DNA of 64,000 bases, taken from positions 1,735-65,734 of the forward strand of contig CAJXLF010000006.1 in NCBI GenBank assembly GCA_913055805.1. The letters run 5' to 3'. The notes below the pieces were generated by a model. It searched no databases, had not been told where the DNA came from, and saw only the letters and a list, made by a program, of their open reading frames with translations. This stretch comes from an uncultured Salinisphaerales bacterium (GTDB lineage Bacteria; Pseudomonadota; Gammaproteobacteria; Nevskiales; CAJXLF01). This document shows positions 36,948-58,690 of this stretch, one piece after another (the first letter of the stretch is position 1; each line of letters starts with the position of its first letter). Made by a program: the position numbers and the translations under genes.

Positions 36948-37051
36948 ATGATTGAGAGGATATTTCGGTATCGTCCAAACAGATGACTTACTGGCGAGCC
37001 GTTTCTGACACCTTATGGCTGATAACTATCAGGGAGACAATGGGGTGTTTC

Positions 37052-38992
37052 ATGGCCATTGATTTAAGTAGACGGGCGGTGCTGGCCGGTATTGCCTCCG
37101 CCATCGGCACTTCGCTGATTGGTTGCGACCCGGACTCCCGTTCCAGGAACCGTAACCCAAATCATGGCGGCAGCAGTGAGCAACCCAATATCCTGGTACT
37201 GCTGGCCGATGACCCGGGACCACAGTTCTTCGGCGCCTATGGCGACGCCCTGGCCTCCACGCCCAATGTCGACCGTCTCGCTAATGACGGCATCCTGTTC
37301 AAGAACTTTTTCGCCACTTCGCCGGTCTGCGCCCCGACACGCTTCGGCATCCTCACGGGCATGCACGCGGAGAGCTGCGGCCCCGCCCACCACATGCGCG
37401 CCGAGGGTAAAATCCCGGACTGGCTGATGGGCTTCCCCGGCTATCTGCAAGAGACCGGCTACTGGACCAGCTATACCGGCAAGGAAGATTACAACGCGGA
37501 TTTCACGGAGCGGGCCGGCTACGATGCAACCAACGCCAACCCGATTGGCAACTTCTTTGAATCCTTTGAGCCCCCTTGGAACGCACGTCCGGAAGGTGCG
37601 CCGTTCTTCTCATTCGTGAACTACGTCACCTGCCACGAATTTTCCGGCTTCGTGCCCCGGCCGGTACTTGTTCTGCCCACACAGGTTGAGGTGCCACCCT
37701 ACCTGCCTGACTCCCTGCTGCAGCGCACCCAGCTCGCCGGCTATTACAACAATGTTGCCCAGACGGATATTGAAATCGGCCTGACCCTGGATCAGCTCAC
37801 GGCGGATGGCCTGTTCGAGGACACCATCATCATCTTCTTCTCCGACCACGGCGGCATCCTGCCGCGCAGTAAACGCTTCTGCTACGACAGCGGCTGCCGT
37901 GTGCCCATGATCATGCGCTTCCCCGAGAAGTGGCAGCATCTGGCGCCGGCCGCACCCGGCACGGTCATCGACGAACCGGCCACCACGGTGGATATCGGCC
38001 CCACCGTGCTGTCGCTGGCCGGACTGAGTATTCCCGACTATATGCATGGGCAGGCCTTTGCCGGGCCGCAGCGCCGCATCCGCAAATACGCCTTTGCCGG
38101 CCGTAATCGCATGGACGAGCGCTATGATTTCATCCGCAGTGTGCGCAGCGCCCGCTTCCGTTATATCCGCAACTACCTGCCGCAGCTGATCTACGGCCAG
38201 CATGTGGCCTTCATGTGGATGCTGCCCGCCTACCGCGACTGGGAACTGCAATGGACGTTGGGTCTGCTCAACGAAGAACAGTCCCGCTTCTGGATGGAGA
38301 AGCCTGCCGAGGAACTCTACGATCTGGAAAGCGACCCGGATGAGGTCCGCAACCTGATTGACGATCCGGCCTATTCCGAAGTTACAGAGGAATTGCGTGA
38401 CGCCCTGAATCTGCACATGGTGTCGATTCACGACAACGGCTTTATCCCCGAGGGGGCGACGGCCGAGGGTTTCGATCAAAGCCGGGCCGCGGGCGCCTAT
38501 CCCCTCATGCAGGTCATGTCACTGGCCGAACTCGCCACCCGCCGCGACCCGCAGTGGTTGCCGGTATTCCAGAATCACATGAGCCATGAGAATGAAGTCA
38601 TGCGTTTCTGGGCGGTGATGGGCGCCATCATGCTGGGCCAGGAAGCCGTTCCCCTGGCCGACAGCCTGCAACAACTGTTTTCAAATGATGAAACGATTCA
38701 TGTGCGCATCGCGGCGGCTGAAGCCCTGGTACGGGTCGGCCAGGCGGGTGATGCGGTGCAGTTCCTGGCGGACACTTTCAAGGGCACACAGCCGAAAAGC
38801 GTACGCCTGCAGGCCATCAACGCCCTGACCAACATCGGCAATGCCGCCCAGCCGGCCTTGGTCGACATCACGCTGGTTGCCGTCACCGAACAGGACATCG
38901 ATTTGCGTAATGCAGCTCTCTATTTGAGCCAGGTACTGAGCGGTACCTATACGCCGCTGACCACTGTTTACGCAGGTGTGCCATTTGCCTAG
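37052..38992 (+). CDS. Cys-type sulfatase with Tat/lipoprotein-like signal and C-terminal HEAT-like repeats
   Basis: It has the FGly motif SPVCAPTRFGILTG. The N-terminus is MAIDLSRRAVLAGIASAIGTSLIGC (twin-Arg plus LIGC). The C-terminus has VRIAAAEALVRVG and AINALTNIG repeats. The start could instead be 37040 or 36983. Confidence 0.85.
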   Translation: MAIDLSRRAVLAGIASAIGTSLIGCDPDSRSRNRNPNHGGSSEQPNILVLLADDPGPQFFGAYGDALASTPNVDRLANDGILFKNFFATSPVCAPTRFGILTGMHAESCGPAHHMRAEGKIPDWLMGFPGYLQETGYWTSYTGKEDYNADFTERAGYDATNANPIGNFFESFEPPWNARPEGAPFFSFVNYVTCHEFSGFVPRPVLVLPTQVEVPPYLPDSLLQRTQLAGYYNNVAQTDIEIGLTLDQLTADGLFEDTIIIFFSDHGGILPRSKRFCYDSGCRVPMIMRFPEKWQHLAPAAPGTVIDEPATTVDIGPTVLSLAGLSIPDYMHGQAFAGPQRRIRKYAFAGRNRMDERYDFIRSVRSARFRYIRNYLPQLIYGQHVAFMWMLPAYRDWELQWTLGLLNEEQSRFWMEKPAEELYDLESDPDEVRNLIDDPAYSEVTEELRDALNLHMVSIHDNGFIPEGATAEGFDQSRAAGAYPLMQVMSLAELATRRDPQWLPVFQNHMSHENEVMRFWAVMGAIMLGQEAVPLADSLQQLFSNDETIHVRIAAAEALVRVGQAGDAVQFLADTFKGTQPKSVRLQAINALTNIGNAAQPALVDITLVAVTEQDIDLRNAALYLSQVLSGTYTPLTTVYAGVPFA

Positions 38993-39899
38993 CACGGAAG
39001 GCACAACGCGCAAGGGCTGCTGCGTACCCTCTGGCGCCGGCAGCCTGTACTGCGTTGGTGATCAACCCTCTCCCGCCGACAAGTTACCCGATATCCGTTT
39101 CCAGGCCATACCGGCCGGCCGCTACCGCGTCGGTTACGAAGGTCCTCTTGCCAACCCCGGTGACAGGGAAGGCCCGGCGCGTGCAATAGACCTGAGCGTC
39201 TTTCGCATCTCTGAGACGGCTGTAACCAATGCGCAATTCGGTGAGTTTGTCACGGCCACCGGTTACCGGACGGATGCGGAACGTCTCGGCTGGTCCTTCG
39301 TGTTCCATTTACTGGCAACAGAGCAGGCCATGACCGCTGCCGAACACCGGGTAGCCAATGCTCCCTGGTGGCTGGCGGTGACAGGCGCGTGCTGGGATGC
39401 ACCCGAGGGCCCGGGTTCCGACATCAAAGATCGTGAAGACCACCCCGTGGTGCATGTTTCCTACCGCGATGCCGTCGCCTACACGCGATGGTCGGGCACC
39501 CGCCTGCCGACGGAACTGGAATGGGAGGTGGCTGCCCGCGGCGGGCTGAGCGGCGCTATCTATCCCTGGGGTGATGAACTCGCACCAAACGACCAATGGC
39601 TTTGCAATATCTGGCAGGGCAGGTTTCCCGAACACAACTCACTGGACGACGGCTACTTGGGCACAGCGCCCGTGCGCAGCTTCCCGCCAAACGGGTATGG
39701 CCTGTATGAAATGGCCGGCAACGTCTGGGAATGGGTAGCCGGGGCCTGGTCAGGCAGCGATCACGACTGCGTGCGAAAGGGCGGTTCCTACCTCTGTCAT
39801 GAATCCTGGTGCAACCGTTATCGTGTGGCCGCCCGTGACCGGGGGGCGCCCCAAGATGCCAGCGGCAACCAGGGATTTCGGGTTGCTACTGACGCCTGA
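38976..39899 (+). CDS. Formylglycine-generating enzyme (SUMF1/FGE family)
   Basis: Motifs are ETAVTNAQFGEFV, HPVVHVSYRDA, RLPTELEWEVAARGG, GNVWEW and GGSYLCHESWCNRYRVAAR. It has a GTG start overlapping the sulfatase stop by 17 nt. Confidence 0.9.
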   Translation: MCHLPSTEGTTRKGCCVPSGAGSLYCVGDQPSPADKLPDIRFQAIPAGRYRVGYEGPLANPGDREGPARAIDLSVFRISETAVTNAQFGEFVTATGYRTDAERLGWSFVFHLLATEQAMTAAEHRVANAPWWLAVTGACWDAPEGPGSDIKDREDHPVVHVSYRDAVAYTRWSGTRLPTELEWEVAARGGLSGAIYPWGDELAPNDQWLCNIWQGRFPEHNSLDDGYLGTAPVRSFPPNGYGLYEMAGNVWEWVAGAWSGSDHDCVRKGGSYLCHESWCNRYRVAARDRGAPQDASGNQGFRVATDA

Positions 39900-39999
39900 C
39901 GATTTCGAACTTCAGCCACTTATTTCAGATTGCCGAAAGAAAGTAACTGACCTCAGCATTTATTATGCCGGGGTCAGGGCAAAGACTGGATTTTGAATC

Positions 40000-42900
40000 T
40001 TATGCCACGTATTTAAACTCTTGAATAGCGGCTTGATACGACTTTTCGATTTCGGCTCTCTGATCTGCCTGCTTTATAGAGTCATGATCAACTCTGCGTT
40101 CCCCCCAAATAACCACACTCAATTCAAGTCCACGTTTCTGTAAATAGTTAGCTAACACTGACTTTCGGATAAAAAGAAAGTCCACACGATTTCGCCAGTT
40201 CTCCCCTTCTGAGAGATACAAAGTGGCTAATCTACCGTTTTTATCCCGTAGATTTATAGATCGCCCAAAACTTACCAGGGATTCCGAATCACAAAGCCAA
40301 GGAGAGGGAAAAGTAAAACCGCTATAATCGTTTACTGTTGAATGATATGACTCCCAAGAAAATGGCCAGCGAAAGGACTCAGCTTCAATACTATTCACAG
40401 TGCGCCATCCCTCGTTGTCCTGATATCCAGACTTAAGTTCCTTCAAGGCAGGTACTTGATGCAATATTTCGTACAACGAAAGTCTTTGATCTCGAGGAAC
40501 TTCCTGATTAACCCGTTCTAGTTCACGGATAACCAGACTTAACGCCTTTTCCCTACCTGTCTCAGTGCGAGCCCGGTGGTATTTCAACAATACCGAATAG
40601 TCGAATAAGAACCAGGTCTTCCGTAGGCGAATTTTGGTTTTAAATCGCTGATGAGATCCAAAAAGCCTATGCATTGGGTTCACGAGCTTCCCGGAATGGG
40701 TTCTCATTTCTGCTGCGAATCTTTTACTCCACCCTACCTCGCCCGCATATGCATAATGATCCCCTCTAACATCTGGCAGTTCTCCCCCAGCATTAGTGGC
40801 GTTTATAAACGCGGCACTAAATCGCTCAGATTCTTCCGGACGAATTCCTAGAGCCCTAATTACAGTGAAGATGCTTAGCCCCGAACTTTCGTCTTCTTCC
40901 CAAATATCCCCGTCCACAAGTACCCAAGGTCCTCGGTGGCCTCCGATTGCGGGAACTTCTAGGATTGAGTCATAACTCGGAATAGGGCCGTTTTGTAGCC
41001 AACCAAGAGGACTATAGTGGTGAGTTTCAGAACCGATTGTTCGCTGATATGTTGGGAGCGGAAATTTCTCAGGAACCGGAAAACTTGGGTCTATATCGCA
41101 ATCACTAGAGCGTTCGAAACCGTCATCTATTAATTTATGGGCTTGACGATATCCATACATTTCAAAATACGCAATCCAGCAGTATTTCTTTCCGTACCTG
41201 TCTACCTTATCGCCACCTTCTCGCCGCCAATTAATCCGTCCGATCATACTGTCAATATCTGAAAACACTTTTTCATCGTAGCCGAGCTCTATGACACGCC
41301 ACTCTATCTGATTACGCACGTCCTGATAGATCGGATGTTTCATATCATAGTTACTACGATCGGGTATCAGTCTACCAAGCGTGTAATTCTCAAAGTCCAT
41401 CATCATAACCCGCTTGGTCTTTTCCTTAATGGAGCCTGAAATTGCACTCGGATTTGGGAAGGGGTTATCAATCGCCGGATACGGGGCTTTCAAATATCTT
41501 TTGCACCCTCGAGGCACCAAACTTGGGTCAAATTTTTGTGCTAACTCGATAATCCCAAGTGCGTAATCACGCATTAATACATGGTGAGTATGGGCCCGCC
41601 CTCCAGGAAGGAACCATTCCTTAACAAGCCATTTTGCTAAGGTAACCAAATATCCTCCAAACCGCTTTCCAGGGCGAATCGCATATTTACTCATTGCCAC
41701 TCCGAAACAAGCAGCAAGAACTCGCTCGCGAACATATGGGTCATCAATATCGAGAGTAACGTGCATAAAATCAAAAAGAGCTCTGGGTTGCAGCTCTCCT
41801 ACTAAGACTAGTGCTTTAGTAGCTCTGTCTCTTAGCCGCCGATCAGTTGTGGTCAGGAACGAAGAAAGGACAGCCACCACGTTTATAGCTGTGTCGAACT
41901 TCAGATTGTTTATCAATCCACTTTCGTAAAATGCAACAATGCGCTCAACGGCTGAACCAGAATCATGGTGATAGCGTATATATTCGCTCCAAGTGCAATC
42001 TCTCCTCTGCATTGAGACTCGTGCTAGATTTCGCATCAAACGCATGCCGCAATAAGGATGCCGAGGTTTAGTGGCCATTGAAACAAGAGCCTCTGAAGCG
42101 GCCCTCTGCCACGTATCGTGCGAACTCCAAAAATATCCGCCTAAAACCTGGTCAGTTTGCTTACTAATAGAAAAGGGGGATCGCCAGATCAGGCCTCGAA
42201 TAAACGGATCAAAATACGCCTGGAAATCACGCGCACGCTTTGGGAGATAAAAGAATAACTCACGTGCATCTTGGGGTAGGCATTTCTTAGTGTATTCAGG
42301 GAACTCAAGAATGATCGCTTCCGCCCAATTTTCTGTGTCGAATCGTGGATAAAATTCACTACTTACGCGAAATATTTTTCCGAGAGGTTGATTCGCGTAG
42401 AAACTGCGACGGATAGAATTCGCGTCGCGAGTGTTGAGATGCTCTCTCAGTAAGTATCTAGCGACTATATGATCACTAAAGCGCTGATAAGGCATGCCAA
42501 CAACATGTAGGGAGCCACCATCATCATCAGGGCGCCAAAGTTGGTTCTCAACCAATACCCCTTCTCGCACCAATAATCTCAGTAGCAACTTCGCTCGATG
42601 CAAGGAACTGATTTCTGGACGTGCTCTAAAAATTTCTAACGTTTTCTTATATGGGACCCATTCGGTTAGATGATGTCCCATGTAACTCGCCAGCCCAGAT
42701 AATTCAGGATCATTTATTGACTTTTTCCCCTTAAGCGCATCCCAGCAAAATTTCGCTGGCAGTCCCATTTCCCTTTCTATTGCCTTAGTACGCTCGAACA
42801 CAAAATGTTCAAGGATGAATGTCATACCTTTCTGGCCAGAAGATATGCCATGGAATCCTTTGCGTTGATCCTTTCTCGGGAGTGACTGGTATGCCTGACA

Positions 42901-44070
42901 GAGAATCTTCAACGTAAGTGGCCGTGAGAATTCATCAGCCAAGAGCGGTACTTCTGGAAGCGGAATGCCGTAAAAGTTAAAAAATTCTCTTTGGGCATCG
43001 AATTCGATATCGTAAAAACCAACGTGTTTGAGATGCACCATCCGCTTACGCGAACTATCCGGCACAATTGTTCTATCAAACGGTTCTCGGCAGCTTACTA
43101 CCAACCCCACATGGGAGTACCCTTTGACGGCAGTAATAAGCTTGGGGACGTCACGTTTCCAAGCTACTGGATCCGATTCATTTATGCCATCTATTAGAAT
43201 CAAACCTCTATACCCTGCTTCCTGACCCATCCGGTCAATGATCTGGATCAAGTCATCAAATGAATTTGCCAAACCCGTAAATTTGGCAAGCTCATCTCCA
43301 CAGGATCCCGCCGGGTCAAAGTCCTTCGCTAATACCACCAAAGATGGTGCCCCATTAGCTGTAAACCGCTTAGCTAGGTCACAAAGGAAATGGGTTTTCC
43401 CCGTGCCCCACTCGCCCGTTAGCATTGCCACCTGGCCAAAACGCAACCGGATCTCTGAGGAATCAAAAAACTCTTTCAGATATCGAACCTCAGAAGATGT
43501 GCGATATAACTGGCTCGAGCGAGATCGTAGGGACTCCAAAACTCGATCTTCCCTATCAGGCGTCTTGCCTCCAGCAGAATTCGTTTTCTCTCTGTCGATC
43601 TCAGCTTTACGTTTATCTATTTTTTCATTGACCTGAGTAATCTCCGATCCTAGGATCTCCCCGATCCGGTCCGCTGCCCTTATTATTTTTTGAACGATCA
43701 CGCGCCCTTCATCGACGGGCTGCTCGCTCATTTCCTTAATTAACTTCGACACGCGATTTGAATATCGCTCAGCTCGTTTTTTACCATCTAGAGCAGACAC
43801 ACACTCAGACATCGCCTTTTCAAACTCATCAAGAACCTGGAGTACTCGGCTCTTGAATTGCTCGTTAACAGCGAGCCCATTCATTGCATTCAGTAATTCA
43901 CCTATTTCCAAGTTTGGCGAATCAGCATCAATACCAGGTGTGTACCTAGGCCCTGCGCTATTTACGGTTCGCTTATTAATTCTGCGTATTCTTTCAATCA
44001 TCTTTGCCGCTACTTGGTTGTTATTTCGAGTTCCCTGCCTCAATAACAAACCGAGCGAGAGAGTGCACAC
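40000..44070 (-). CDS. Giant (about 1330-1356 aa) orphan P-loop NTPase, STAND/KAP-like
   Basis: Walker A is LTGEWGTGKTHF (about nt 43393-43416). Walker B is GLILIDGINES (about nt 43174-43203). It has a charged coiled-coil N-terminus and a roughly 1000-aa C-terminal region with HEAT-like helices. It is low-GC. The start may be GTG 44070 or ATG 44001. Confidence 0.75.
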   Translation of the reverse strand: MCTLSLGLLLRQGTRNNNQVAAKMIERIRRINKRTVNSAGPRYTPGIDADSPNLEIGELLNAMNGLAVNEQFKSRVLQVLDEFEKAMSECVSALDGKKRAERYSNRVSKLIKEMSEQPVDEGRVIVQKIIRAADRIGEILGSEITQVNEKIDKRKAEIDREKTNSAGGKTPDREDRVLESLRSRSSQLYRTSSEVRYLKEFFDSSEIRLRFGQVAMLTGEWGTGKTHFLCDLAKRFTANGAPSLVVLAKDFDPAGSCGDELAKFTGLANSFDDLIQIIDRMGQEAGYRGLILIDGINESDPVAWKRDVPKLITAVKGYSHVGLVVSCREPFDRTIVPDSSRKRMVHLKHVGFYDIEFDAQREFFNFYGIPLPEVPLLADEFSRPLTLKILCQAYQSLPRKDQRKGFHGISSGQKGMTFILEHFVFERTKAIEREMGLPAKFCWDALKGKKSINDPELSGLASYMGHHLTEWVPYKKTLEIFRARPEISSLHRAKLLLRLLVREGVLVENQLWRPDDDGGSLHVVGMPYQRFSDHIVARYLLREHLNTRDANSIRRSFYANQPLGKIFRVSSEFYPRFDTENWAEAIILEFPEYTKKCLPQDARELFFYLPKRARDFQAYFDPFIRGLIWRSPFSISKQTDQVLGGYFWSSHDTWQRAASEALVSMATKPRHPYCGMRLMRNLARVSMQRRDCTWSEYIRYHHDSGSAVERIVAFYESGLINNLKFDTAINVVAVLSSFLTTTDRRLRDRATKALVLVGELQPRALFDFMHVTLDIDDPYVRERVLAACFGVAMSKYAIRPGKRFGGYLVTLAKWLVKEWFLPGGRAHTHHVLMRDYALGIIELAQKFDPSLVPRGCKRYLKAPYPAIDNPFPNPSAISGSIKEKTKRVMMMDFENYTLGRLIPDRSNYDMKHPIYQDVRNQIEWRVIELGYDEKVFSDIDSMIGRINWRREGGDKVDRYGKKYCWIAYFEMYGYRQAHKLIDDGFERSSDCDIDPSFPVPEKFPLPTYQRTIGSETHHYSPLGWLQNGPIPSYDSILEVPAIGGHRGPWVLVDGDIWEEDESSGLSIFTVIRALGIRPEESERFSAAFINATNAGGELPDVRGDHYAYAGEVGWSKRFAAEMRTHSGKLVNPMHRLFGSHQRFKTKIRLRKTWFLFDYSVLLKYHRARTETGREKALSLVIRELERVNQEVPRDQRLSLYEILHQVPALKELKSGYQDNEGWRTVNSIEAESFRWPFSWESYHSTVNDYSGFTFPSPWLCDSESLVSFGRSINLRDKNGRLATLYLSEGENWRNRVDFLFIRKSVLANYLQKRGLELSVVIWGERRVDHDSIKQADQRAEIEKSYQAAIQEFKYVA

Positions 44071-44260
44071 AAACTATCCGTAAAATTAAAGCCAACAGAG
44101 ACAGCTTTTTGCGGCCTCCCCATCCCAATATGGGTGATTGTATGTGCGACGGTTCAGTTACTCGGCAGAGTAAATTTTATATACGGACAACGTCATTAGA
44201 ATTGTTCTTAACCCAGAAAAGCATCAGAGTCAAAGCCAAGAAAATTCTAGAGCCCTATTT

Positions 44261-44500
44261 TTATAGTGCTTTTTCCAAGCGCTCTATAAACTCGACTGAA
44301 CCAATCCCAACAGCTTTGCAGATATCTCTCAACTCAAGAATATCCACTCGCTTATCGCCAGTTTCAAACTTATGGACGTAGTTCTGGCTATGACCAAGTT
44401 TTTCAGCCAGTTCCCACTGCGTCAGCCCAGCCTCAAGGCGCACCTCACGAAGTAACTTCGAGAGTATTTCCTGTTCTTTTGTCCAGCGTTTCTTGCCCAT
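44261..44500 (-). CDS. XRE family helix-turn-helix regulator
   Basis: The HTH is LTQWELAEKLGHSQNYVHKFETG. It is 79 aa and lies upstream of the giant NTPase on the same strand. Confidence 0.85.
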   Translation of the reverse strand: MGKKRWTKEQEILSKLLREVRLEAGLTQWELAEKLGHSQNYVHKFETGDKRVDILELRDICKAVGIGSVEFIERLEKAL

Positions 44501-44606
44501 TCAGGCAAGGTAAAGCCTGGAATAAAATACACCGTTTTGCTATAATAATAATTACGGGTGCGCACCCATCCAAGAACGAATTAACACTAAGCAAGGAGAC
44601 TCAATA

Positions 44607-45236
44607 ATGAAGCTTAATAAGCAGCTTCCCGTATCTATTGTCTTTGCATTTTGCCTGACCGCTTGCGGCGGCGGCGGTGGTGGTAGTTCCGATGACGATG
44701 CTGGTGGTGATAGCGCCAACAGTGCACCTCAGTTCACCTATGCCGGTGTAAACCAGGATACTGCCGGGAACGGTTACTGGACGGACACGCCGTCGGAAGG
44801 GCGTGCGGAACTAAATTACGCGCAGAGTCACAGTGTACATGAGCCTGGCTATGTTGTTCTGGAACTCGACCTCGTGCCCGAGGAGCGCCCATATATTCTG
44901 AGCATTTTACTGTCCGCTGATGATGCGTTGGATGAAGGCGATGCCAAAGTCATCGGCGTGGGCTGTAACTCGGGCGTCAATTCGGCCTGCGTGGACTTCA
45001 TATTCTGGGAATGTCATATCACGGAATCGCCACGAGAATTCTCTGGTTGCGAGGATTCGGAGACTGGGTCAAGTCTGCCCGACGCCAATAGCCATGCCTA
45101 TGACGGATTTGTTGATGAGCATGGTGCAGGCGCCGCTGTCTGGATGATCTTCGAAGCCTGCGCACAGGAGTCTGATGGTAGCGGGGGATTCGAGAATGCC
45201 TGCAGTGAAGTAGCACTGCCCGTCACTGTCTACTAG
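44607..45236 (+). CDS. Acidic Cys-rich lipoprotein, unknown function
   Basis: It has a signal peptide with the lipobox LTAC followed by a GGGGGGSS linker. The SD is AAGGAGA. Confidence 0.6.
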   Translation: MKLNKQLPVSIVFAFCLTACGGGGGGSSDDDAGGDSANSAPQFTYAGVNQDTAGNGYWTDTPSEGRAELNYAQSHSVHEPGYVVLELDLVPEERPYILSILLSADDALDEGDAKVIGVGCNSGVNSACVDFIFWECHITESPREFSGCEDSETGSSLPDANSHAYDGFVDEHGAGAAVWMIFEACAQESDGSGGFENACSEVALPVTVY

Positions 45237-45251
45237 TAAAGGAGACCGGAT

Positions 45252-45476
45252 ATGAAATGGATTCTTCTCGGCATTGCCGCCTTTCAATATGGCGGCTCCG
45301 GCCCGACTGCTTTCACAGCTGAATTTGATACAGAAGCCGCCTGCCTAAACGCCCGGAAGGTGATGGGTGAGCATATCAAGCAGACTGCTATTTACCAGAG
45401 TCGCGTGCAGGCGGCATGGCAAATGTCATGCGTGCCTAAAGGTGACAATCCTGTAACTGCTCCGGGTAATCAGTGA
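45252..45476 (+). CDS. Small secreted protein, unknown function
   Basis: It has an AAAGGAGA SD and a hydrophobic N-terminus, MKWILLGIAAF. The stop overlaps the next start (GTGATGA). Confidence 0.4.
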   Translation: MKWILLGIAAFQYGGSGPTAFTAEFDTEAACLNARKVMGEHIKQTAIYQSRVQAAWQMSCVPKGDNPVTAPGNQ

Positions 45477-46114
45477 TGAAGAAAAATCATTCACATCGAG
45501 CAGAACGCTGGGCCCATCGACTCAGTCTCGCACCCCTCCTTCTGTTGGGGTTCATGGGTGTGGGAAGTGCAAGCCAAGACAACCTGATCGGGCTGTTTAT
45601 CTTCCTGGGTATTGGTTTGTTGGGCACCTTGGTCGCTTATCCGATTCTTTGTCCAATTCTTTCGCTGTTCCTAAAGAGTTCAGAACAGTCATCAACACGA
45701 AAACCCAAGCCTCCACGTTACGTGAGTGCTCACCGTTGGGTAGCACGTCTGAGCCTGGCGCCCTTGGTGCTGGGCGGAGCTGTGAGCGTACTTGCGGCTG
45801 TTAAGGGGCACCCGGAAGACATTGTTATCTTGTTAGGCCTCGGGCTCCTGTTTTCCGGAATGGCTTATCTGGTATTCGGATTCATTGCATCCGTGGTGAT
45901 CGGTGAGTTCATTTGGGATTTCATGCGTGGCGGCGACGAAGCAACCCACTTATGGTCGCAAGATCAACTGGCCAGGCTTGATGACCCATTCGACCCGAGT
46001 AATATCAACCATCCGCTCCATCCGGGCAATCTGTCCGGCACGACTAATCTGGACAGTCCAATGAACCCATGGGGCTACGCTTATGGCGATGACCGCATTG
46101 GTAGTGATTGGTGA
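45476..46114 (+). CDS. Membrane protein with an internal tandem duplication
   Basis: There are two homologous halves. The first is RW-HRLSLAPLLLLG..LGIGLLGTLVAY. The second is RWVARLSLAPLVLGG..LGLGLLFSGMAY. Confidence 0.6.
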   Translation: MKKNHSHRAERWAHRLSLAPLLLLGFMGVGSASQDNLIGLFIFLGIGLLGTLVAYPILCPILSLFLKSSEQSSTRKPKPPRYVSAHRWVARLSLAPLVLGGAVSVLAAVKGHPEDIVILLGLGLLFSGMAYLVFGFIASVVIGEFIWDFMRGGDEATHLWSQDQLARLDDPFDPSNINHPLHPGNLSGTTNLDSPMNPWGYAYGDDRIGSDW

Positions 46115-46248
46115 ACACATTGGGTGACATCTTCACCGTGTTCACTCTGTAATGAAGGGCGCAGTACTCTTTACTATCTCATGCCCTTCATGGCATGCCT
46201 GATGGTGGCTGTGTTTATGGATACAGCTCACGTCGAGGATGTAGTTTG

Positions 46249-46464
46249 ATGTTGTCTAAATACCGAATCTCAAGCTCTTACGGAATCCTGATCTTCGCAT
46301 TGCTTCTGTCTGGCTGTTCAAGCGCAGAAGAACCCTGCGATAACGGCCAGCGAGAAGCATATAGAGCGGCTATCGAAGCTACTCTTGGCAGTCACATCGC
46401 GGTAGCGGTCCCGCCGGCCGAGGGCGATGAGAACTGCGACAAAGAAAAAACTCGAGACGAGTAG
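46249..46464 (+). CDS. Small lipoprotein, unknown function
   Basis: ORF 46195..46464. The internal start MLSKYRISSSYGILIFALLLSGC has a lipobox. Confidence 0.4.
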   Translation: MLSKYRISSSYGILIFALLLSGCSSAEEPCDNGQREAYRAAIEATLGSHIAVAVPPAEGDENCDKEKTRDE

Positions 46465-46501
46465 CTATCTACTATTTTGATCTGATCAAGGGTAATTGTG
46501 A

Positions 46502-46531
46502 AACGGGCCAGGCATTCCTGCCCGGCCCGTT
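46502..46531. repeat. 13-bp-stem hairpin AACGGGCCAGGCA-ttcc-TGCCCGGCCCGTT
   Basis: The arms match 12/13. It lies 38 nt after the lipoprotein stop. There is no T-tract, so terminator status is uncertain. Confidence 0.4.
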
Positions 46532-46576
46532 GTAGCTCAATAAGCGCTCTCGAGAGGCCAAGGGTGAGCCTTGTAT

Positions 46577-46683
46577 TGCGCTCAATGCCGCTGTCTGACG
46601 TAAGACCAGTATAACGGCACCAGGCTAGTCACCTGCAACTATGATACCCGTTGATCCTCGGTTTGCTACCCGCATTGAGCGCA
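46577..46683. repeat. 12-bp perfect inverted repeat (TGCGCTCAATGC / GCATTGAGCGCA) enclosing 83 nt
   Basis: The arms are at 46577-46588 and 46672-46683, in a 350-nt gap with no ORF. Confidence 0.5.
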
Positions 46684-46814
46684 TCAGGATGCCAACCTGA
46701 GTTCAGAATATCCCAAAATAGCGCCGTTTCCCAAGTTTGCAGCATTTTGTTCACACCGGACACATGATGTCTTCGTCATCGAAGCCAAACAGATTCTGTG
46801 TATAGTAAATCCTC

Positions 46815-47522
46815 ATGTGTGGCCGTTACTTCATTCTTCCGGATCCCGCCTCCTGGAACGAGGTGCGAGAGGAATTTGGTGACGAAGTTGCCGATCAAAT
46901 CGCGCAAAGCAAGCCTCGATACAACGTCGCCCCGTCGCAACAAATCATCTTTATCCGCAATCTGGAAGAAGGGGCCACTAGCGATGAGGCAGTTTGGACG
47001 TTCATCCCCCACTGGTGGAAGCAGTCCGGTCTTCCCAAATTCTCAACCAAGAATGCTCGCGCTGAGGACGCTGCCAACAAACCGATGTGGAAGCACGCCT
47101 ACCGGCACAACCGCTGCCTTATACCTTTATCGGGCTGGTATGAATGGACGCAGGAGTCTTGGGGAAAACAGCCTTGGCTTTTCCGCGATCCAGGCGGGCA
47201 AGGCATGCTCGTGGCCGGCTTATGGTCAGTCTGGCAGCAGACCGAAGACACCAGCCCTATGCTGACCTGTGCGATCCTGACACGGGAAGCGCTACCGTCT
47301 CTATACGAGATTCATGACAGGATGCCGGTGGTCCTGGAACGCGCTGCGTGGAAACGCTGGCTGGATCCTAATCTTACCGATCCCGACGAGATTACCCGGC
47401 TCTGGCAGGAAAACACGAAACAGACAATTGAGGTCTTTCCAGTCAGCAAGGCTGTGAACTCCTCACGCAATGACGGCCCGGATCTCATTGAACGAGTCGA
47501 CCTGAAGCCAAAGCCCTTTTAG
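46815..47522 (+). CDS. SOS response-associated peptidase (SRAP / YedK-like, DUF159)
   Basis: It has the N-terminal MCGRY with the catalytic Cys2. It also has NVAPSQ, HDRMPVVL and the typical length of about 235 aa. Confidence 0.85.
   Translation: MCGRYFILPDPASWNEVREEFGDEVADQIAQSKPRYNVAPSQQIIFIRNLEEGATSDEAVWTFIPHWWKQSGLPKFSTKNARAEDAANKPMWKHAYRHNRCLIPLSGWYEWTQESWGKQPWLFRDPGGQGMLVAGLWSVWQQTEDTSPMLTCAILTREALPSLYEIHDRMPVVLERAAWKRWLDPNLTDPDEITRLWQENTKQTIEVFPVSKAVNSSRNDGPDLIERVDLKPKPF
47485..47520 (+). repeat. Direct repeat copy 1 (last 36 nt of the SRAP gene)
   Basis: tcattgaacgagtcgacctgaagccaaagccctttt matches 49650-49685 at 34 of 36 positions. Confidence 0.85.
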
Positions 47523-47686
47523 CGGTATTCGGATTTATGGTGGGCAACATTGCAGTTACCAGCTACTCATATTGATATGGTAAAAACTGTATCGGTATTC
47601 ACAAGCTCATAAATCAATTGAATCAGGAGTAACCTCATAAAAGTGCTTACCTTATTCCACGTATCTAATCCCCACAGGGGTACATG

Positions 47687-47711
47687 ATATACGGCACTTT
47701 TGTCCGTATAT
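47687..47711. promoter_or_regulatory. Perfect 8-bp inverted repeat ATATACGG-N9-CCGTATAT
   Basis: It ends 26 nt upstream of the ATG at 47737. It could be an operator or a 5' hairpin. Confidence 0.3.
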
Positions 47712-47736
47712 TATTTGTTAAACGTCTCGGTGACCG

Positions 47737-48576
47737 ATGGCAGAAAATCCGAACACTGAATACGAGCGTTTGGCGCAAGAGATCTACCAGGCACTGGCGG
47801 GATCTGAGGCCAACAACATCAAAGTCCAGCACAACGTGCTGGTCAAGGGCAGGTCTGGCTGTGAACACCAGATTGATGTTTATTGGGAGTTTTCATCCAT
47901 GGGAGAAACTCACAGAGTCGCGATCGAATGCAAGAACTACAGCCATAATGTCTCGATCGGACGTATCCGCGATTTTCATGCGGCCCTCTTGGATGTGGGG
48001 AACATCAACGGCATCGTGGTTACAAAGCATGGGTTCCAAAGCGGCGCGGTTAAGTACGCCAATTATTACGGCATTTCATTGAAAGAGTGCCGTTTCCCGA
48101 CGCCCAGTGATTGGGAAGGTAGGGTGAAGGACATCGTAATTTCGATCCACGCGTTCATGCCTCACATCACCTCACGTGAGCCAGTTATTGATCTCGCGTG
48201 GGCAGTCGCAAATACCGACCTAAAGGAAGGTGATTCGTTCTCATTCACTGGATACAGCAACGAAATCCAAATCACCGATGAACAAGGCGATGAAATTACA
48301 AATTTCCATGAAATGGAAAGCAAGTTGCCCCAGAACTGGAAGGAAGAAACCGGGCTGACGCACGACTATAAATTTGATAACGCGTACATCGTTGTTCCGG
48401 CTCATGGGCGCCTGAAGCTACTTGGCGTCAAGTACACGTATGATGTCCGCTCCGCTTCATCCGAAACTATTTTGGAAGGTGAAGAAATCGCTCGTGCCAT
48501 ACTCAAAGATGTTCAGTCGGGTGGTATGCACTTCTACGATAAAGATGGAAACATCGCGGAGAAGAGAGACGTATAA
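47737..48576 (+). CDS. Mrr-like restriction-endonuclease-domain protein with an unknown C-terminal domain
   Basis: HQIDVYW...RVAIECKNYSHNVSIGRIRDFHAALLDVGNINGIVVTKHGFQSGAVKYA follows the Mrr_cat D...ExK pattern. The roughly 150-aa C-terminal half is unrecognised. Confidence 0.6.
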   Translation: MAENPNTEYERLAQEIYQALAGSEANNIKVQHNVLVKGRSGCEHQIDVYWEFSSMGETHRVAIECKNYSHNVSIGRIRDFHAALLDVGNINGIVVTKHGFQSGAVKYANYYGISLKECRFPTPSDWEGRVKDIVISIHAFMPHITSREPVIDLAWAVANTDLKEGDSFSFTGYSNEIQITDEQGDEITNFHEMESKLPQNWKEETGLTHDYKFDNAYIVVPAHGRLKLLGVKYTYDVRSASSETILEGEEIARAILKDVQSGGMHFYDKDGNIAEKRDV

Positions 48577-48602
48577 CTCAGTAGTTTTGTTCCAGATAAC
48601 CA

Positions 48603-49247
48603 ATGAGCATTGATAAGGCACTTCACGCACTCGAGGCGTTCCAAGGAGACTCGTTGACTGAGAGTCTCTCGGACATTGAACGCCAGATCATTGGGTCTGG
48701 CGTTGAAGACATGGACGGCTTCTGCGCGATGCGAGGTCTCGACGGTACCTTCATGGATGCCGCCATAGCTGTGAAGCGCGTTGCGGGGCAGATCAACGTC
48801 ATCATCCACGCTGCTGGAATTCTTCGCTCTCTTTCTAGTCTCCTTGAGCCTGGAGAAAAAGTAGAAAGCGTGTCATTGGGGGCGGGCAACACTGGTCGCC
48901 AGTTCGACCTTGAGACCAACATGCGTGTCGCTGAATATAAGTTCATTGACTGGCAGGGCGGTCCAGAGTCCATCCGCCAAAATGGTATTTTCAAGGATTA
49001 CTTCGAGCTAGCAGAGTACGAGACCCCCAAGAAAAAGTACCTGTACGTTGTCGGAACAGAGTACCCCCTAAAATTCTTCAATGGAGGGCGTGCACTGACC
49101 AGTGTCCTCAGCCGCAATCCGAAAATTTTATCGCACATCCATGAGAAGTACGGCAACAGTATCGCCAAGGTTCGCGACTACTACGAGATGAAGAAGAACG
49201 ACGTGACCATTTGCGATGTCACTCCGTACATCAGCAGGAGCGCATAA
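48603..49247 (+). CDS. Hypothetical protein, possible PD-(D/E)xK nuclease
   Basis: It is 214 aa. The candidate motif is GRQFDLETNMRVAEYKF (D-x8-E-x-K). I recall no family match. Confidence 0.45.
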   Translation: MSIDKALHALEAFQGDSLTESLSDIERQIIGSGVEDMDGFCAMRGLDGTFMDAAIAVKRVAGQINVIIHAAGILRSLSSLLEPGEKVESVSLGAGNTGRQFDLETNMRVAEYKFIDWQGGPESIRQNGIFKDYFELAEYETPKKKYLYVVGTEYPLKFFNGGRALTSVLSRNPKILSHIHEKYGNSIAKVRDYYEMKKNDVTICDVTPYISRSA

Positions 49248-49294
49248 CAAGCTTAGGATTCCGGCCGCTCAGCTCCGACCTTAGGTAGCAATTG

Positions 49295-49639
49295 ATGGCA
49301 TCAACAAAGAGCTTAGATGGGTTTGTTTACAATCTTGCCCAAAAATTTAATCTGTCCTGCGAGCATATTTGCCGGATGCTTAATACAAGTGAATTCCCAG
49401 AATTCCGGGCCGATCTCATAACAGGAGAAATCACACCGCCAGAATTTGATATCAGACGCAATAGAATTCTCGTGGACAGAGTTAGAGATTTTTACACCTA
49501 TACAATCGCGCCAATTATAGGCACCAACTGCGTAAGAGCAGAAATAATCTTAACTACGTCGGGTTTTAAGTCCACGACTACAGCTGAAGTAGAAGATTCA
49601 GAAGGTAAAATTTGGTCTAAAGCTATATCTACTGCGTGA
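49295..49639 (+). CDS. Hypothetical 114-aa protein
   Basis: The ORF-track start at 49292 is a TTG, and an ATG follows at 49295. No motifs were recognised. Confidence 0.4.
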   Translation: MASTKSLDGFVYNLAQKFNLSCEHICRMLNTSEFPEFRADLITGEITPPEFDIRRNRILVDRVRDFYTYTIAPIIGTNCVRAEIILTTSGFKSTTTAEVEDSEGKIWSKAISTA

Positions 49640-49649
49640 TTCACGGACA

Positions 49650-49685
49650 TCATTGAACGGGTCGACCTGAAGCCAAAGTCCTTTT
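49650..49685 (+). repeat. Direct repeat copy 2 (relic of an SRAP 3' end)
   Basis: tcattgaacgggtcgacctgaagccaaagtcctttt still reads in frame as IIERVDLKPKSF followed by TGA at 49685-49687. Confidence 0.85.
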
Positions 49686-49689
49686 GAAG

Positions 49690-50490
49690 ATGAAATTTGC
49701 TCTCGTCAACGGAGAACGCCAAGAGGCCCAGCCAAATCTTTCAGGCACGTGCCCAACTTGCAATCACCCGATGGTTGCAAAGTGCGGAGAAGTTCGGATG
49801 TGGCACTGGGCTCACCAAGGAACCCGTTCATGCGACCCATGGTGGGAGAATGAAACCGAATGGCACCGCGCTTGGAAGGGACAGTTTCCCGTCCACTGGC
49901 AGGAGATCGTTCATACAGCTGAAACCGGTGAGAAGCATATTGCGGATGTAAAGACTGATCGCGATTGGGTGATCGAGTTCCAACATTCGTATATCAAGCC
50001 GGAAGAGCGTCGGTCTCGTGATGCCTTTTACCCAAAATTAGTTTGGGTGGTAAATGGAACAAGACGAAGGAGAGATAGGGTTCAATTTGCAAATGTGTGG
50101 AACGAGGGTTTGCAGCTAAACTCTTCTGTTCGACTGGTCGACTCGGATAAATGCCTACTCCTGAAGGAATGGGCAAGCAGCCATTGGCCAATATTCTTCG
50201 ACTTCCGCGAAGAGCATGTGCTTTGGTGGCTTCTCCATAGAAGTAAAAACAAAGATCGGTTGGTATACGTCGCACCGTTTGCGCGTGCAGACTTTATCGA
50301 AAGCCACTATGTCGGAGCAACACAAGAGGGCCAAAATTTCGATGACATTGTGAGAGGTATCGGCGAACTTGATGTGCGTCACGAATTACAACTCTGGGAC
50401 AAGGCGTTGAAACGCTCTGAACCGAAACAACCACTTCGAAACTTCGAACGATACTTGTATCTCAAGGGGAAGCGTCAGAGACGGTTTTAA
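49690..50490 (+). CDS. CoiA-like (competence protein CoiA family) nuclease-fold protein
   Basis: CPTCNHPMVAKCGEVRMWHWAH....ENETEWHRAWK and HIADV...VIEFQHS match the CoiA family pattern as I recall it. Confidence 0.65.
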   Translation: MKFALVNGERQEAQPNLSGTCPTCNHPMVAKCGEVRMWHWAHQGTRSCDPWWENETEWHRAWKGQFPVHWQEIVHTAETGEKHIADVKTDRDWVIEFQHSYIKPEERRSRDAFYPKLVWVVNGTRRRRDRVQFANVWNEGLQLNSSVRLVDSDKCLLLKEWASSHWPIFFDFREEHVLWWLLHRSKNKDRLVYVAPFARADFIESHYVGATQEGQNFDDIVRGIGELDVRHELQLWDKALKRSEPKQPLRNFERYLYLKGKRQRRF

Positions 50491-50543
50491 GGTAGCGAAG
50501 GCCTTTATACGGTTATTATTAGTTAGGTATCAGAAGAATCACT

Positions 50544-51035
50544 ATGCGGGTAGCCACGACTCAAGATCTGCCGCGAATTGTTGAAATATATAATTCGACT
50601 ATCTCTTCACGTACAGCCACGGCAGACACTGTCCCAGTATCAATCGAGAGCAAAGTCGCTTGGTTTAATGCCCATAATCCCGCCACTAGGCCATTGTTAG
50701 TTAAAGAGCGAAATTCCACCTTAATTGGCTGGTTAAGCTTTGAAAATTTCTATGGCCGTCCGGCATATTCACATACGGCAGAAATAAGCATCTATATAGA
50801 TGAAAAGTTTAGAGGTATGGGGCTAGGTAAAGAAATGCTGCAGTATGCTATCGAGTTAGCTCCTTCTCTCAACTTGAAGAATCTTCTGGGTTTTGTGTTC
50901 AGGCACAACCAGGCAAGCATTGCGTTACTCTCTAATTTTGGTTTTGAGCAGTGGGGTTTATTGCCAAACATCGCAACAATGGATGGTGAGTCTTATGCGC
51001 TCTGTATTTATGGCTTGTCACTATCTGATACCTAA
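50544..51035 (+). CDS. GNAT family N-acetyltransferase (phosphinothricin/amino-acid acetyltransferase-like)
   Basis: It has the acetyl-CoA loop FRGMGLGKEML. The PAT-like N-terminus is IVEIYNSTISSRTATADT, followed by FGFEQWG. Confidence 0.85.
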   Translation: MRVATTQDLPRIVEIYNSTISSRTATADTVPVSIESKVAWFNAHNPATRPLLVKERNSTLIGWLSFENFYGRPAYSHTAEISIYIDEKFRGMGLGKEMLQYAIELAPSLNLKNLLGFVFRHNQASIALLSNFGFEQWGLLPNIATMDGESYALCIYGLSLSDT

Positions 51036-51105
51036 CACCTCGCGAAACATTGCACCTTCGGGGTGGGACGCGCCTTTCAGACGTGCCCCTTAACTTCATC
51101 CAGCG

Positions 51106-52068
51106 TTGGGCATCAAGGTGAGCCAATTCAACTTCCGCGTTCGATTCAATCTACCTAATGGCTTTCGCATCAATGCAGAAGAAGAGAAGCTGCATCTAGT
51201 TCAGCTACCTTCAGGAGTGGAGCTAATTCTGACGACCGGCCAGACAGGAGTCCCGATCAAGGAATGCTCCAGGGCAGTGGTGACGGGAAAAGGCTTTGAA
51301 ACGGCAGAAGAAGCGCAGGCTGTCGCGGAAAAGGTAAAGAGGGTTTTGCTCTTCTGGTCCGTAAAATATCGTCATGGCATAGATTTAGGTGACGGCCGTC
51401 AACGTAGTGTCGCAACGAATGCTGGTCTGGCACTCCTAGAACAAGAGCATGGCTGTCCGTTCCGCAATGACATACACGGGATCGATGTATTCGAGCATCA
51501 AGATAACTTGAAGTTCGTGCATGTGGGAATGCAGGCTACTGCACAGAAGCATCCGCGATATCTCGTAGAAACATTTCAAGAGGAGATTCATGCCAGTCGC
51601 TCGGTCAGCCCAAAGCAAGAATTGGCGTGCGAGCTTTACGTCAGTTCGTGGTTTGATGTCAGTTACAGAAGCCGATTCATTACTTTGGTGACAGCGGTCG
51701 AAGCTCTGATAGAGCAAAATGAGCACCCTGAGGAGGTGGCCGCTCTGCTGAACTCCACCAACACGAACCTTAAAAGCCTTCCTCTCCCGGCGGATGTCGT
51801 AGCGTCCATTTCTGGAGGCTTGGGGCGGTTGAAGCGCCAGTCAATTAGTCAAGCTGGTAGGGAGTTGGCCAGAGCCCTGCTGCCCAATCGTCAGTTCCAG
51901 GGAAAGGATGCCGATAAGTACTTTTCATATTGCTATAACCTCCGGAGCGAAATTCTTCATAACGGTGCACCGCCCGACGGAGTGGATATGCTTCAAGTTG
52001 CGAACGAGGCAGAGGAATTCGTGTCGGCATTGCTGCTTGCTTCACTCGGGGAAGCGTCGGCGTGTTGA
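51106..52068 (+). CDS. Hypothetical protein with a possible C-terminal HEPN domain
   Basis: It has an R-x4-H motif (LRSEILH) in an all-helical C-terminal region (FITLVTAVEALIE...). The start is non-ATG, either TTG 51106 or GTG 51118. Confidence 0.4.
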   Translation: MGIKVSQFNFRVRFNLPNGFRINAEEEKLHLVQLPSGVELILTTGQTGVPIKECSRAVVTGKGFETAEEAQAVAEKVKRVLLFWSVKYRHGIDLGDGRQRSVATNAGLALLEQEHGCPFRNDIHGIDVFEHQDNLKFVHVGMQATAQKHPRYLVETFQEEIHASRSVSPKQELACELYVSSWFDVSYRSRFITLVTAVEALIEQNEHPEEVAALLNSTNTNLKSLPLPADVVASISGGLGRLKRQSISQAGRELARALLPNRQFQGKDADKYFSYCYNLRSEILHNGAPPDGVDMLQVANEAEEFVSALLLASLGEASAC

Positions 52069-52150
52069 CACCCAACACTTATGAGGCCTCCAGTAGTCAG
52101 AGGCAAAGGGGAGCCGCTGAGTCTCGAACCCAGGGTGTGGGTTACCCTGC

Positions 52151-52285
52151 GATGTGCGAGAAGCAGCCTACTGGTGGATGATCGAGTACAACGAAGAGCG
52201 GCCCCATGACTCACTGGGTGATCTGACACCCGTTGAGCACTATGCCAAGTACACCGGAAACTCTAGTTTACAACTGTCCGCTTGA
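52151..52285 (+). mobile_element. IS3-family transposase 3' remnant (pseudogene fragment)
   Basis: It translates to DVREAAYWWMIEYNEERPHDSLGDLTPVEHYAK...*, which is the integrase-core C-terminal signature. A stop lies upstream in frame at 52118 and there is no N-terminal part. Confidence 0.6.
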
Positions 52286-52601
52286 CGGGGAAGCTTACGG
52301 CCCGTTCGCGTGTTTGGACAGTTTCACGGGTAGAGGCAGGTCTGGCAAAGAGGTTACGCTTACTGACGTGAGCGTAAAACACAATTGTGAAAGCCGCGAA
52401 GATCGTTGGTACGGCGATATCAAGCAGTATCAAAGAACAAGCTGTAAGCAGACGGCGATGGGCTGGACGAAATCGTGTGTGATACTAACGCTGGGAAACA
52501 CTTGGCTCGTATTCGGTGATGAAGCGAGACGAGACCTCTTTTTTACAGAACTGACTTCCGCGTTTACGGACTGGAGATCGAGATATCCAGACTTGCAGTG
52601 A
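52242..52601 (+). CDS. Hypothetical protein (doubtful)
   Basis: ORF 52233..52601. Its 5' end overlaps the IS3 remnant in another frame. No motifs were recognised. Confidence 0.25.
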   Translation: MPSTPETLVYNCPLDGEAYGPFACLDSFTGRGRSGKEVTLTDVSVKHNCESREDRWYGDIKQYQRTSCKQTAMGWTKSCVILTLGNTWLVFGDEARRDLFFTELTSAFTDWRSRYPDLQ

Positions 52602-52739
52602 CTCTTATAATTTGCACGACGCGCTAACCCTTGGCGTTGCAACTGCCACCTAACAAGACAATGCAGTTGACAGTTTTCCGCTATGCTCCAAACGGTAAGT
52701 GATGGTATTCGTTGGCCAGCGATACTGACGGAGGTACAT

Positions 52740-53468
52740 ATGCCCCTTAACGCCAGTCTAGTGCCGACTCTCGCGCTAGCAACGTTCGCCGTTGCCGGGT
52801 GCTCACCAAGTGAGCCGGGCCCACGGTTGGCAGACTCTAACGCAAGAGAAATCATGGAAGAATACTGCAGTGAGGGCATTTGGCGAATTCAACTCGGGGA
52901 TGTTGAAGTTCTCCGACCAGGATTCCGCCAAGCTGAAGAGCGCCAGACACTCAGTCAACCCCAAGCTGGCAACTCCAAAAAGCCTCGGCTCTCAGCGAAC
53001 GCTTACCAGGACCTCAAGACATGGCAGGTTGCGGGTCTAATCGAGATAACAACCAAAGAGATTCTTGGTGAGAGATCTAGCCGTCAGGACGGCGTTCAGA
53101 TGGTTGTACATGTTTCTGCCACGGAGCGCGGTCGGGAATTCGACGCCGAGTCCAGTTCAAAGGACAGTCTTGTCATACGTTCCGCGCCTTGTCGGGTGGA
53201 TGCAATCGTGACCAATCAACTCATCACAACGGATGCGGATATCTTCAGAATTGTAAAGGGTACTTATACCAGTCAACTCTCGGATGAACTCACGCGATAC
53301 TACGAGGCCATCGGTCATCCACGCACAAGTGAGCGAAAATTCCAGCTCCTCCTAAAGTTCGATCCGTTTGATAAGGACTGGAACATCGTTGCCTATGATG
53401 GCGCAAACATTAGTTCGGAGTTCCCCTCGGACAAAGTTGGGAAATACCTTTCCGGGCTAAGCCGATGA
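52740..53468 (+). CDS. Lipoprotein, unknown function
   Basis: ATG 52740 has a GGAGG SD. The signal MPLNASLVPTLALATFAVAGC carries a lipobox. Confidence 0.55.
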   Translation: MPLNASLVPTLALATFAVAGCSPSEPGPRLADSNAREIMEEYCSEGIWRIQLGDVEVLRPGFRQAEERQTLSQPQAGNSKKPRLSANAYQDLKTWQVAGLIEITTKEILGERSSRQDGVQMVVHVSATERGREFDAESSSKDSLVIRSAPCRVDAIVTNQLITTDADIFRIVKGTYTSQLSDELTRYYEAIGHPRTSERKFQLLLKFDPFDKDWNIVAYDGANISSEFPSDKVGKYLSGLSR

Positions 53469-53529
53469 AGCAGACGGTCGCCTTCTGTACCGCAGCTTAT
53501 TGGCGGGCCGTTAGAGAAAAACACCTCGC

Positions 53530-54177: not shown

Positions 54178-54373
54178 GAAAATGCTCTATCAAGTCACTC
54201 AACGAGGATGTTGAGCATCCCCTGAAAAAGTGGGTGCTTATAGTTCCATCGGTAGACGACTAGCAACGTGGACTCCTTGCGCAATAATAGTCCTAGCCTC
54301 ACTCACAAGACCGATATAAAGCCACGTTCCATCTCGGCCCCGTAACCGATTTCTTGACTTCTGGGCACCTCTG

Positions 54374-54393
54374 TACTGTAAATAAATACAGTA
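54374..54393. promoter_or_regulatory. LexA (SOS) box TACTGTAAATAAATACAGTA
   Basis: It is a perfect CTGT-N8-ACAG palindrome 17 nt upstream of umuD. It overlaps the -10 region of a promoter with a TTGACT -35 at 54354-54359. Confidence 0.85.
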
Positions 54394-54410
54394 TCTAGGA
54401 AATAGCCATC

Positions 54411-58650: not shown

Positions 58651-58690
58651 TGGCGCAGCGCATAAATCCGCCGCAATGGATCACGAAACG

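Follow-up and report, generated by a model that had tools for sequence, protein, structure and literature searches.

A probable Avs2-type STAND NTPase without an N-terminal effector at the edge of a low-GC island in an uncultured Salinisphaerales bacterium

A 64,000-nucleotide stretch of contig CAJXLF010000006.1 (assembly GCA_913055805.1) from an uncultured Salinisphaerales bacterium, referred to below as the window, carries on its minus strand (40000..44001) a gene for a large STAND NTPase. Its product probably belongs to the Avs2 (AVAST type 2) family, as a divergent member from which the effector domain is missing. An earlier note on this DNA had proposed a giant orphan STAND/KAP-like NTPase with an XRE-family partner, a candidate NLR-like antiphage sensor whose output domain could not be recognized. 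The idea of a STAND sensor lacking an effector and situated in a defence island has held up, but not that of a new kind of protein: the family is already known and structurally characterized, and the window protein is a divergent new member of it. Profile searches place it in this characterized defence family, not in a non-defence one.

An open reading frame (ORF) of 1356 codons runs along the minus strand (40000..44070), opening with GTG at 44070 and closing with a stop codon at 40000-40002; residues are numbered from this ORF throughout. The true start is likely the ATG at 44001 instead, for a protein of 1333 amino acids, because the homologues all begin at the equivalent of Met24; at related loci there is an ATG 1-9 codons ahead of this position. 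Much of what the earlier note had described is borne out: the 1356-codon length; a Walker A motif, GEWGTGKTH (residues 219-227; 43390-43416), and a Walker B motif, LILIDGINES (residues 290-299; 43174-43203); a helical N-terminus of ~190 residues, 35% of them charged; the absence of transmembrane helices, the best 19-residue Kyte-Doolittle window reaching 1.22; and the absence of any nuclease, protease, or TIR domain detectable by Pfam, PADLOC, NCBIfam, or Foldseek. The gene does lie at the edge of a low-GC island. GC content is 0.61 to the left of 40000, 0.457 within the gene, and ~0.50 over the remainder of the window; on either side of the left boundary, neighbouring 1-kb windows have 0.609 and 0.454.

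Evidence for the family assignment comes from profiles and from structures. All six PADLOC Avs2 models match the protein (E = 3e-162 to 9e-55); the best of them (PDLC02164, E = 3e-162) covers residues 28-847, and also residues 915-1125 when the C-terminus is scanned alone. The NCBIfam Avs2 equivalog NF041813 matches at E = 5e-145 (485.3 bits). The cryo-electron microscopy structure of EcAvs2 (9o4e) is matched by the single window sequence at E = 2e-56, and at E = 4.5e-122 by a clade profile made from 32 clade members of 35-46% identity, which aligns with chain residues 170-989, 1098-1325 (1095-1325 with a profile of the C-terminal domain, or CTD), and 1351-1447. As a lone single sequence, the CTD found no match in a Protein Data Bank (PDB) search; the EcAvs2 CTD was matched once a profile was used. 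The AlphaFold2 (AF2) model of residues 801-1356 (pLDDT 91.3) is helical, then beta-rich, and its sole significant Foldseek match in the PDB is SeAvs3 with terminase (8dgc; E = 4e-7, probability 1.0); there are no enzyme folds among its matches. In the model of residues 24-600 (pLDDT 88.5), an N-terminal helix and a low-confidence loop lead into a bundle of long helices; the NBD-HD1-WHD unit behind it matches Cdc6/ORC, NAIP/NLRC4, and Avs4 (E = 4e-7 to 1e-4). The NACHT model PF05729 reaches E = 0.029 on the window protein (14.6 bits, against a cut-off of 26.7), and several clade members have precomputed PF05729 hits. Membership of the KAP NTPases, as first suggested, was rejected: KAP_NTPase, whose cut-off is 20 bits, scores 15.7 over just 23 residues around Walker A, and the transmembrane helices are missing.

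The domain plan follows that published for Avs2: helical extension, STAND ATPase, TPR domain, and C-terminal sensor (PMC13601566; 10.64898/2026.08.25.746987). A helix (residues 24-38) and a loop with the invariant motif SAGPRYTPG.D..PNL (38-54), together at 43891..44001, are defined by a 32-sequence alignment, the clade profile, and AF2. A charged helical extension or insertion follows (~57-212; 43435..43902); in the N-terminal model the first helix occupies model residues 2-15 (pLDDT 95), the low-confidence loop residues 22-29, and long helices residues 34-189. This extension matches positions 177-341 of the PADLOC Avs2 profile (E = 1e-8), and a corresponding one has been described for both EcAvs2 and VcAvs2 (PMC13601566; preprint 10.64898/2026.08.25.746987). 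Next comes the STAND NTPase core (NBD-HD1-WHD, ~213-600; 42271..43434), marked by its invariant Walker residues and by Foldseek, and then a TPR-like alpha-helical sensor (~601-980; 41131..42270), helical in the AF2 model, containing an MDFENYT motif, to which D892 belongs, and aligning to EcAvs2 up to residue 989. The beta-rich C-terminal sensor domain (~981-1356; 40003..41130) is delimited by AF2, by the Foldseek match to 8dgc, and by the EcAvs2 profile alignment. What had been taken for a 1000-residue HEAT-like region is made up of these two sensor parts (HEAT_2 matches at E = 0.018 only), and where an output domain of a new sort had been suspected lies the terminase-sensing TPR and CTD module of the family. 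Homologue alignment picks out one helical insertion of ~65 residues within the CTD (~1150-1215; 40426-40623), common only to the closest homologues (e.g., P0002, P0004, P0009, P0012, P0020) and missing from most of the clade; it might alter target specificity.

In canonical Avs2 proteins the effector sits before the helical extension and is usually an Mrr-like nuclease. That of VcAvs2 is a trypsin-like protease (10.64898/2026.08.25.746987), and that of EcAvs2 a non-enzymatic domain of ~165 amino acids whose action is unknown (PMC13601566). Position 6 of the clade profile aligns with EcAvs2 chain residue 170, and a common motif stands at the start of the alignment, near EcAvs2 residue 180: AGPRYTPG in the clade, GGRYTPE(LN) in EcAvs2. 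Only 13 residues lie ahead of this AGxRYTP motif in the window protein. Opening as it does at the N-terminal motif, the alignment with canonical Avs2 leaves no space for an effector domain. The NCBIfam Avs2 model, which leaves out the effector, begins at residue 199 of P0215, an effector-bearing relative. Truncation or a mis-called start is ruled out by a frame that is closed upstream at ~70 of 80 genomic loci, being open there for no more than 60 codons before the Met24 equivalent.

The distribution of N-terminal domains among relatives agrees with this picture. Among 201 full-length relatives, the N-terminus is longer by at most 45 residues in 189 and includes a domain of ~170 amino acids in only 10. 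These ten are the most distant matches, and in a neighbour-joining tree of the common region they group as one clean clade. The nearest effector-bearing relatives found (P0215, P0227, and others; 1430-1544 amino acids) align from residue ~177-199 on. The N-terminal domain of the effector-bearing relatives was recognized neither by Pfam nor by PDB sequence search, although a PD...E...QxK-like pattern can be made out by eye. The form without an effector exists close to canonical Avs2 too: of 36 alignment members, 14 match the NCBIfam Avs2 model at E <= 1e-290 while only 8 bear an effector, leaving at least six more distant effector-less relatives at ~970 bits or more. Candidate locations for a hidden effector were considered and rejected at both ends of the window protein. 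The C-terminal AF2 model matches the Avs3 terminase sensor only, with nothing from Pfam at E <= 10, and the N-terminal region is the helical extension of the family by profile alignment, AF2, and Foldseek. No discussion of an effector-less Avs2 was found in the literature searched; it is not claimed here that the form is unreported.

Residues expected to matter for the ATPase and the sensor are strongly conserved. Invariant in 32 sequences are A39, G40, R42, Y43, P45, P52, and N53 of the N-terminal motif, as well as G219, W221, G222, G224, K225, T226, G295, N297, and E298, with D294 nearly so (at least 90%). Stretches of the sensor conserved across the clade are MDFxNYT, DRYGKKY, DPSFP, YAGE, WESYHS, and WGER. 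At 35-46% identity, the Walker motifs and many sensor positions are invariant in more than 15 phyla, haloarchaea among them. In EcAvs2, D981, E1362, and E1444 contact terminase or the bridging ATP (PMC13601566); they align with D892, E1240, and E1324 of the window protein, the first and last of which are clade-invariant and the second nearly invariant. By homology, the window protein is probably a sensor of phage terminase. Retention of the bipartite form and of the ATPase and sensor residues over very deep divergence implies purifying selection, and on this evidence the gene looks functional. A few observations weigh against placing so distant a protein in the family and reading it as a terminase sensor. 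Its NF041813 score of 485.3 bits does not reach the trusted cut-off of 1000; its identity to effector-bearing Avs2 proteins is only ~25-30%; and the bridging-ATP residues T1128 and R1130 have no counterpart, unlike R1132, which aligns with R949. Contacts of this kind in EcAvs2 are reported to be individually redundant (PMC13601566).

"Orphan," the term used at first, does not describe this protein. A word-indexed search returned 609 homologues at E <= 1e-10, the top 120 of them full-length with 35-46% identity, and an exhaustive search of representatives of 50%-identity clusters returned 2253 at E <= 1e-10 and 1045 at E <= 1e-30. On contigs from one genome per species there are 275 related loci, spread over many phyla. 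The bipartite form alone makes up at least ~100 clusters at 50% identity, bacterial and archaeal. Full-length effector-less homologues of 28-38% identity occur in the haloarchaea Natrialba chahannaoensis (L029) and Halorubrum rubrum (L033), and in ultra-small bacteria of the candidate phyla radiation (L036, L078, and L080), which indicates a single-gene module transferred between domains. The deep clade whose bipartite plan of sensor plus ATPase the window protein shares has been carried widely by horizontal transfer. A plasmid collection contained only distant canonical Avs2 proteins.

Gene neighbourhoods were surveyed by BLAST clustering of all ORFs within 5 kb at 80 loci. There is no conserved partner: no neighbour family occurs at more than 13 of the 80, the commonest being HsdR-like (13), HsdM (6), HsdS (5), and serine recombinase (4). 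Among the 100 nearest neighbours from 46 loci, Pfam and PADLOC turned up no family more than four times; their matches include type I, II, and IIG restriction-modification (R-M), MADS, Dsr2, Mokosh, Hhe, and TIR. None of the other island genes of the window recurs beside homologues, and the window protein has no Avap1, Avap2, or MBL neighbour gene. Three closer metagenomic homologues are found among type III R-M modules, UvrD-like helicases, and HsdS-Kiwa-PD-Lambda-4. Such placement among defence genes fits an immune role. Two dense defence islands may be described individually: at L084 (1-10029), homologue P0007 follows HsdS, KwaA/KwaB (Kiwa), and a 1277-amino-acid PD-Lambda-4_A gene, all on one strand; at L082 (173-12900), homologue P0005 lies between two modules of ResIII plus type III methyltransferase.

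How might a protein of this kind act? By homology to 9o4e and 8dgc, the TPR/CTD pocket would bind the ATPase domain of the phage large terminase, and the terminase-bound protein would then bind ATP and assemble into a tetramer. The preferred guess is that assembly itself would be the output, with terminase trapped and inactivated and DNA packaging blocked; this is put forward tentatively, with confidence clearly short of even. It is suggested by the lack of a cis-encoded effector, by the lack of a conserved neighbour, and by a gene that moves between phyla alone. In EcAvs2, 2834 Å2 of terminase surface is buried, the active site is sealed by the bridging ATP, and the nuclease domain is held partly unfolded (PMC13601566), all of which makes trapping plausible. 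The more general proposition is that a deep Avs2-type clade defends without an effector, the assembled sensor-ATPase neutralizing phage, for instance through capture and partial unfolding of terminase that would keep genomes from being packaged; it is possible but doubtful. Several considerations tell against trapping. A passive trap would not obviously need strictly conserved ATPase motifs. To our knowledge, every Avs2 studied so far needs an N-terminal nuclease, protease, or other death domain for protection. Effector-dead KpAvs2 K71A and VcAvs2-trypsin H32A lose defence (PMC11564622; 10.64898/2026.08.25.746987), so that binding alone is insufficient in those canonical proteins, and effector deletion in other Avs families abolishes cell death.

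The chief rival to trapping is that the window protein is a sensor-only subunit, signalling to an effector encoded elsewhere. The terminase-bound protein could seed an oligomer with an effector-bearing STAND paralogue, or become part of one, much as NAIP and NLRC4 do, or it could recruit or perturb a universal host factor so that growth stops. This too has a modest chance of being right. In its favour are the absent cis effector and the strict conservation of oligomerization motifs, and the genes are often in defence islands with many other systems; there are precedents for host factors (Avs7 with EF-Tu, bNACHT25 with DnaJ) and for an accessory protein (KpAvs2 with Avap2). The neighbourhood survey, however, offers no partner within 5 kb at the 80 loci and no recurring second Avs-type gene nearby, and single-gene transfer across bacterial and archaeal phyla speaks against a specific partner, although it is compatible with a universal host factor.

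An output domain may instead be concealed in the ~1000-residue C-terminus or the coiled-coil N-terminus of what would then be a new NLR-like sensor under XRE regulation. For residues 24-212 the libraries offer no function beyond "Avs2 helical extension," the insertion at 1150-1215 is subclade-specific, and EcAvs2 itself has a non-enzymatic effector of obscure action. Yet every segment aligns with canonical Avs2, whose effector forms a domain of its own at the N-terminus; the C-terminal model matches only the Avs3 terminase sensor, with no enzyme fold; residues conserved in the C-terminus recur in effector-bearing Avs2 proteins and map to terminase contacts; and the XRE gene (see below) is not kept beside homologues. 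Such concealment is unlikely. A gene that is non-defensive or decaying, whether a non-working relic left after effector loss or a STAND protein re-used for regulation, would be in keeping with frameshifted or truncated copies at ~10 of 80 loci, with clade members that have no known phenotype, and with the sub-threshold NCBIfam score. Persistence of the bipartite form in all those bacterial and archaeal clusters, with invariant ATPase and sensor residues and a consistent placement among defence genes, makes this very improbable.

Comparison with characterized systems shows where the window protein stands. EcAvs2 (9o4e; PMC13601566) shares with it the AGxRYTP motif, the helical extension, the NBD-HD1-WHD unit, the TPR-like and beta-rich sensors, the three acidic contact residues, and life as a single-gene system in defence islands. 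It differs in having the ~165-residue N-terminal effector, in its bridging-ATP residues T1128 and R1130, and in lacking the helical insertion at 1150-1215, and identity is low in the best local alignment. KpAvs2 and other Mrr-nuclease Avs2 proteins, and VcAvs2-trypsin-MBL (PMC11564622; 10.64898/2026.08.25.746987), have homologous ATPase and sensor modules, but kill by means of an N-terminal nuclease, or a protease that activates the MBL DNase, for which the window protein has no equivalent. SeAvs3 (8dgc), a terminase-sensing STAND protein, matches the C-terminal 556 residues of the window protein, for which sensing would be a shared property by homology. It belongs to another family (query-normalized TM-score 0.38, 11% identity), has a Cap4-like nuclease as its effector, and assembles into an elongated, not a flat, tetramer. 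The bNACHT01-like clade 14 (Kibby et al., bioRxiv 10.1101/2022.07.19.500537) is likewise an antiphage STAND clade that is an exception to the fused-effector rule; it is probably unrelated, however, with a short C-terminal extension and no large repeat sensor.

The small XRE-family gene reported beside the NTPase gene is present (44261..44500, minus strand; 79 amino acids). Its product matches HTH_3 at E = 2e-11, as well as the PADLOC HTH_VI, capH, and RM control-protein models, and on the same strand the gene precedes the Avs2-like start by 260 nt. It is not a partner in the sense first intended: jackhmmer with the XRE protein found no match in any ORF of the 80 related loci, nor is there a homologue at the three closer metagenomic loci (83 other loci altogether), so that it is a local neighbour and not a family partner. 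It is possibly a regulator of the island. Scans for promoters, terminators, and inverted repeats between the XRE and NTPase genes gave nothing above chance. A perfect palindrome, GGGTGCGCACCC, is located at 44554-44569, ~55 nt upstream of the XRE start, in a divergent intergenic region that faces a lipoprotein-like gene at 44607; the terminator scan caught it too. It could be the XRE operator.

The low-GC island has its left boundary in the convergent gap (39900..40000) that separates the Avs2-like stop codon from a host FGE-sulfatase gene, on the 61% GC side. On the host side (60% GC; 36983-39899, plus strand), an arylsulfatase with C-terminal HEAT repeats overlaps the FGE-sulfatase (formylglycine-generating enzyme) gene by 17 nt. 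In other STAND proteins, FGE-like domains are known to act as sensors; the arylsulfatase/FGE-sulfatase genes here are a metabolic pair unrelated to the island. The island runs from 40000 to the end of the window, its right end lying beyond, and no integrase or tRNA was seen in the part at 44600-64000. It includes genes for SRAP (46815-47522), an Mrr_cat-like restriction endonuclease (47737-48576) followed by an unknown protein of 214 amino acids (48603-49247), a CoiA_N-like protein (49684-50490), a GNAT protein (50544-51035), and UmuD/UmuC (54411-56155). A 691-amino-acid ORF of 44% GC (56303-58378, minus strand), without a Pfam or PADLOC match, encodes a cysteine-rich product with a hydrophobic stretch at its N-terminus and a Lys/Glu-rich segment of high charge. 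Just upstream of a gene for a Replic_Relax-like protein (59184-60191) is a GC-rich patch (58500-59200) with long overlapping ORFs on both strands (141-472 amino acids); the mechanically called 472-amino-acid ORF from 58773 is probably over-extended, with the real gene start near 59184. A type III R-M module (60267-63991, minus strand) consists of a ResIII helicase-nuclease of 859 amino acids and a Mod methyltransferase fragment, which matches PADLOC MTase_III (E = 8e-122) at profile positions 339-708 of 709 only; the Mod ORF starts near the window end and may be cut or truncated.

Taken as the discovery of a new immune sensor, this is an ordinary finding, because automated defence finders such as PADLOC would, in a standard run, very probably label the gene Avs2. 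The interest lies in the missing effector, that is, in a large, conserved, self-mobile branch with sensor and ATPase only. If these proteins defend by themselves, they would be bacterial NLR-like receptors that neutralize their ligand without killing the cell, a non-suicidal output. Should an unlinked partner be required, they would be the bacterial equivalent of sensor/helper NLR pairs. Prokaryotic pattern-recognition immunity would be better understood with either answer, and the window gene offers a clean test case.

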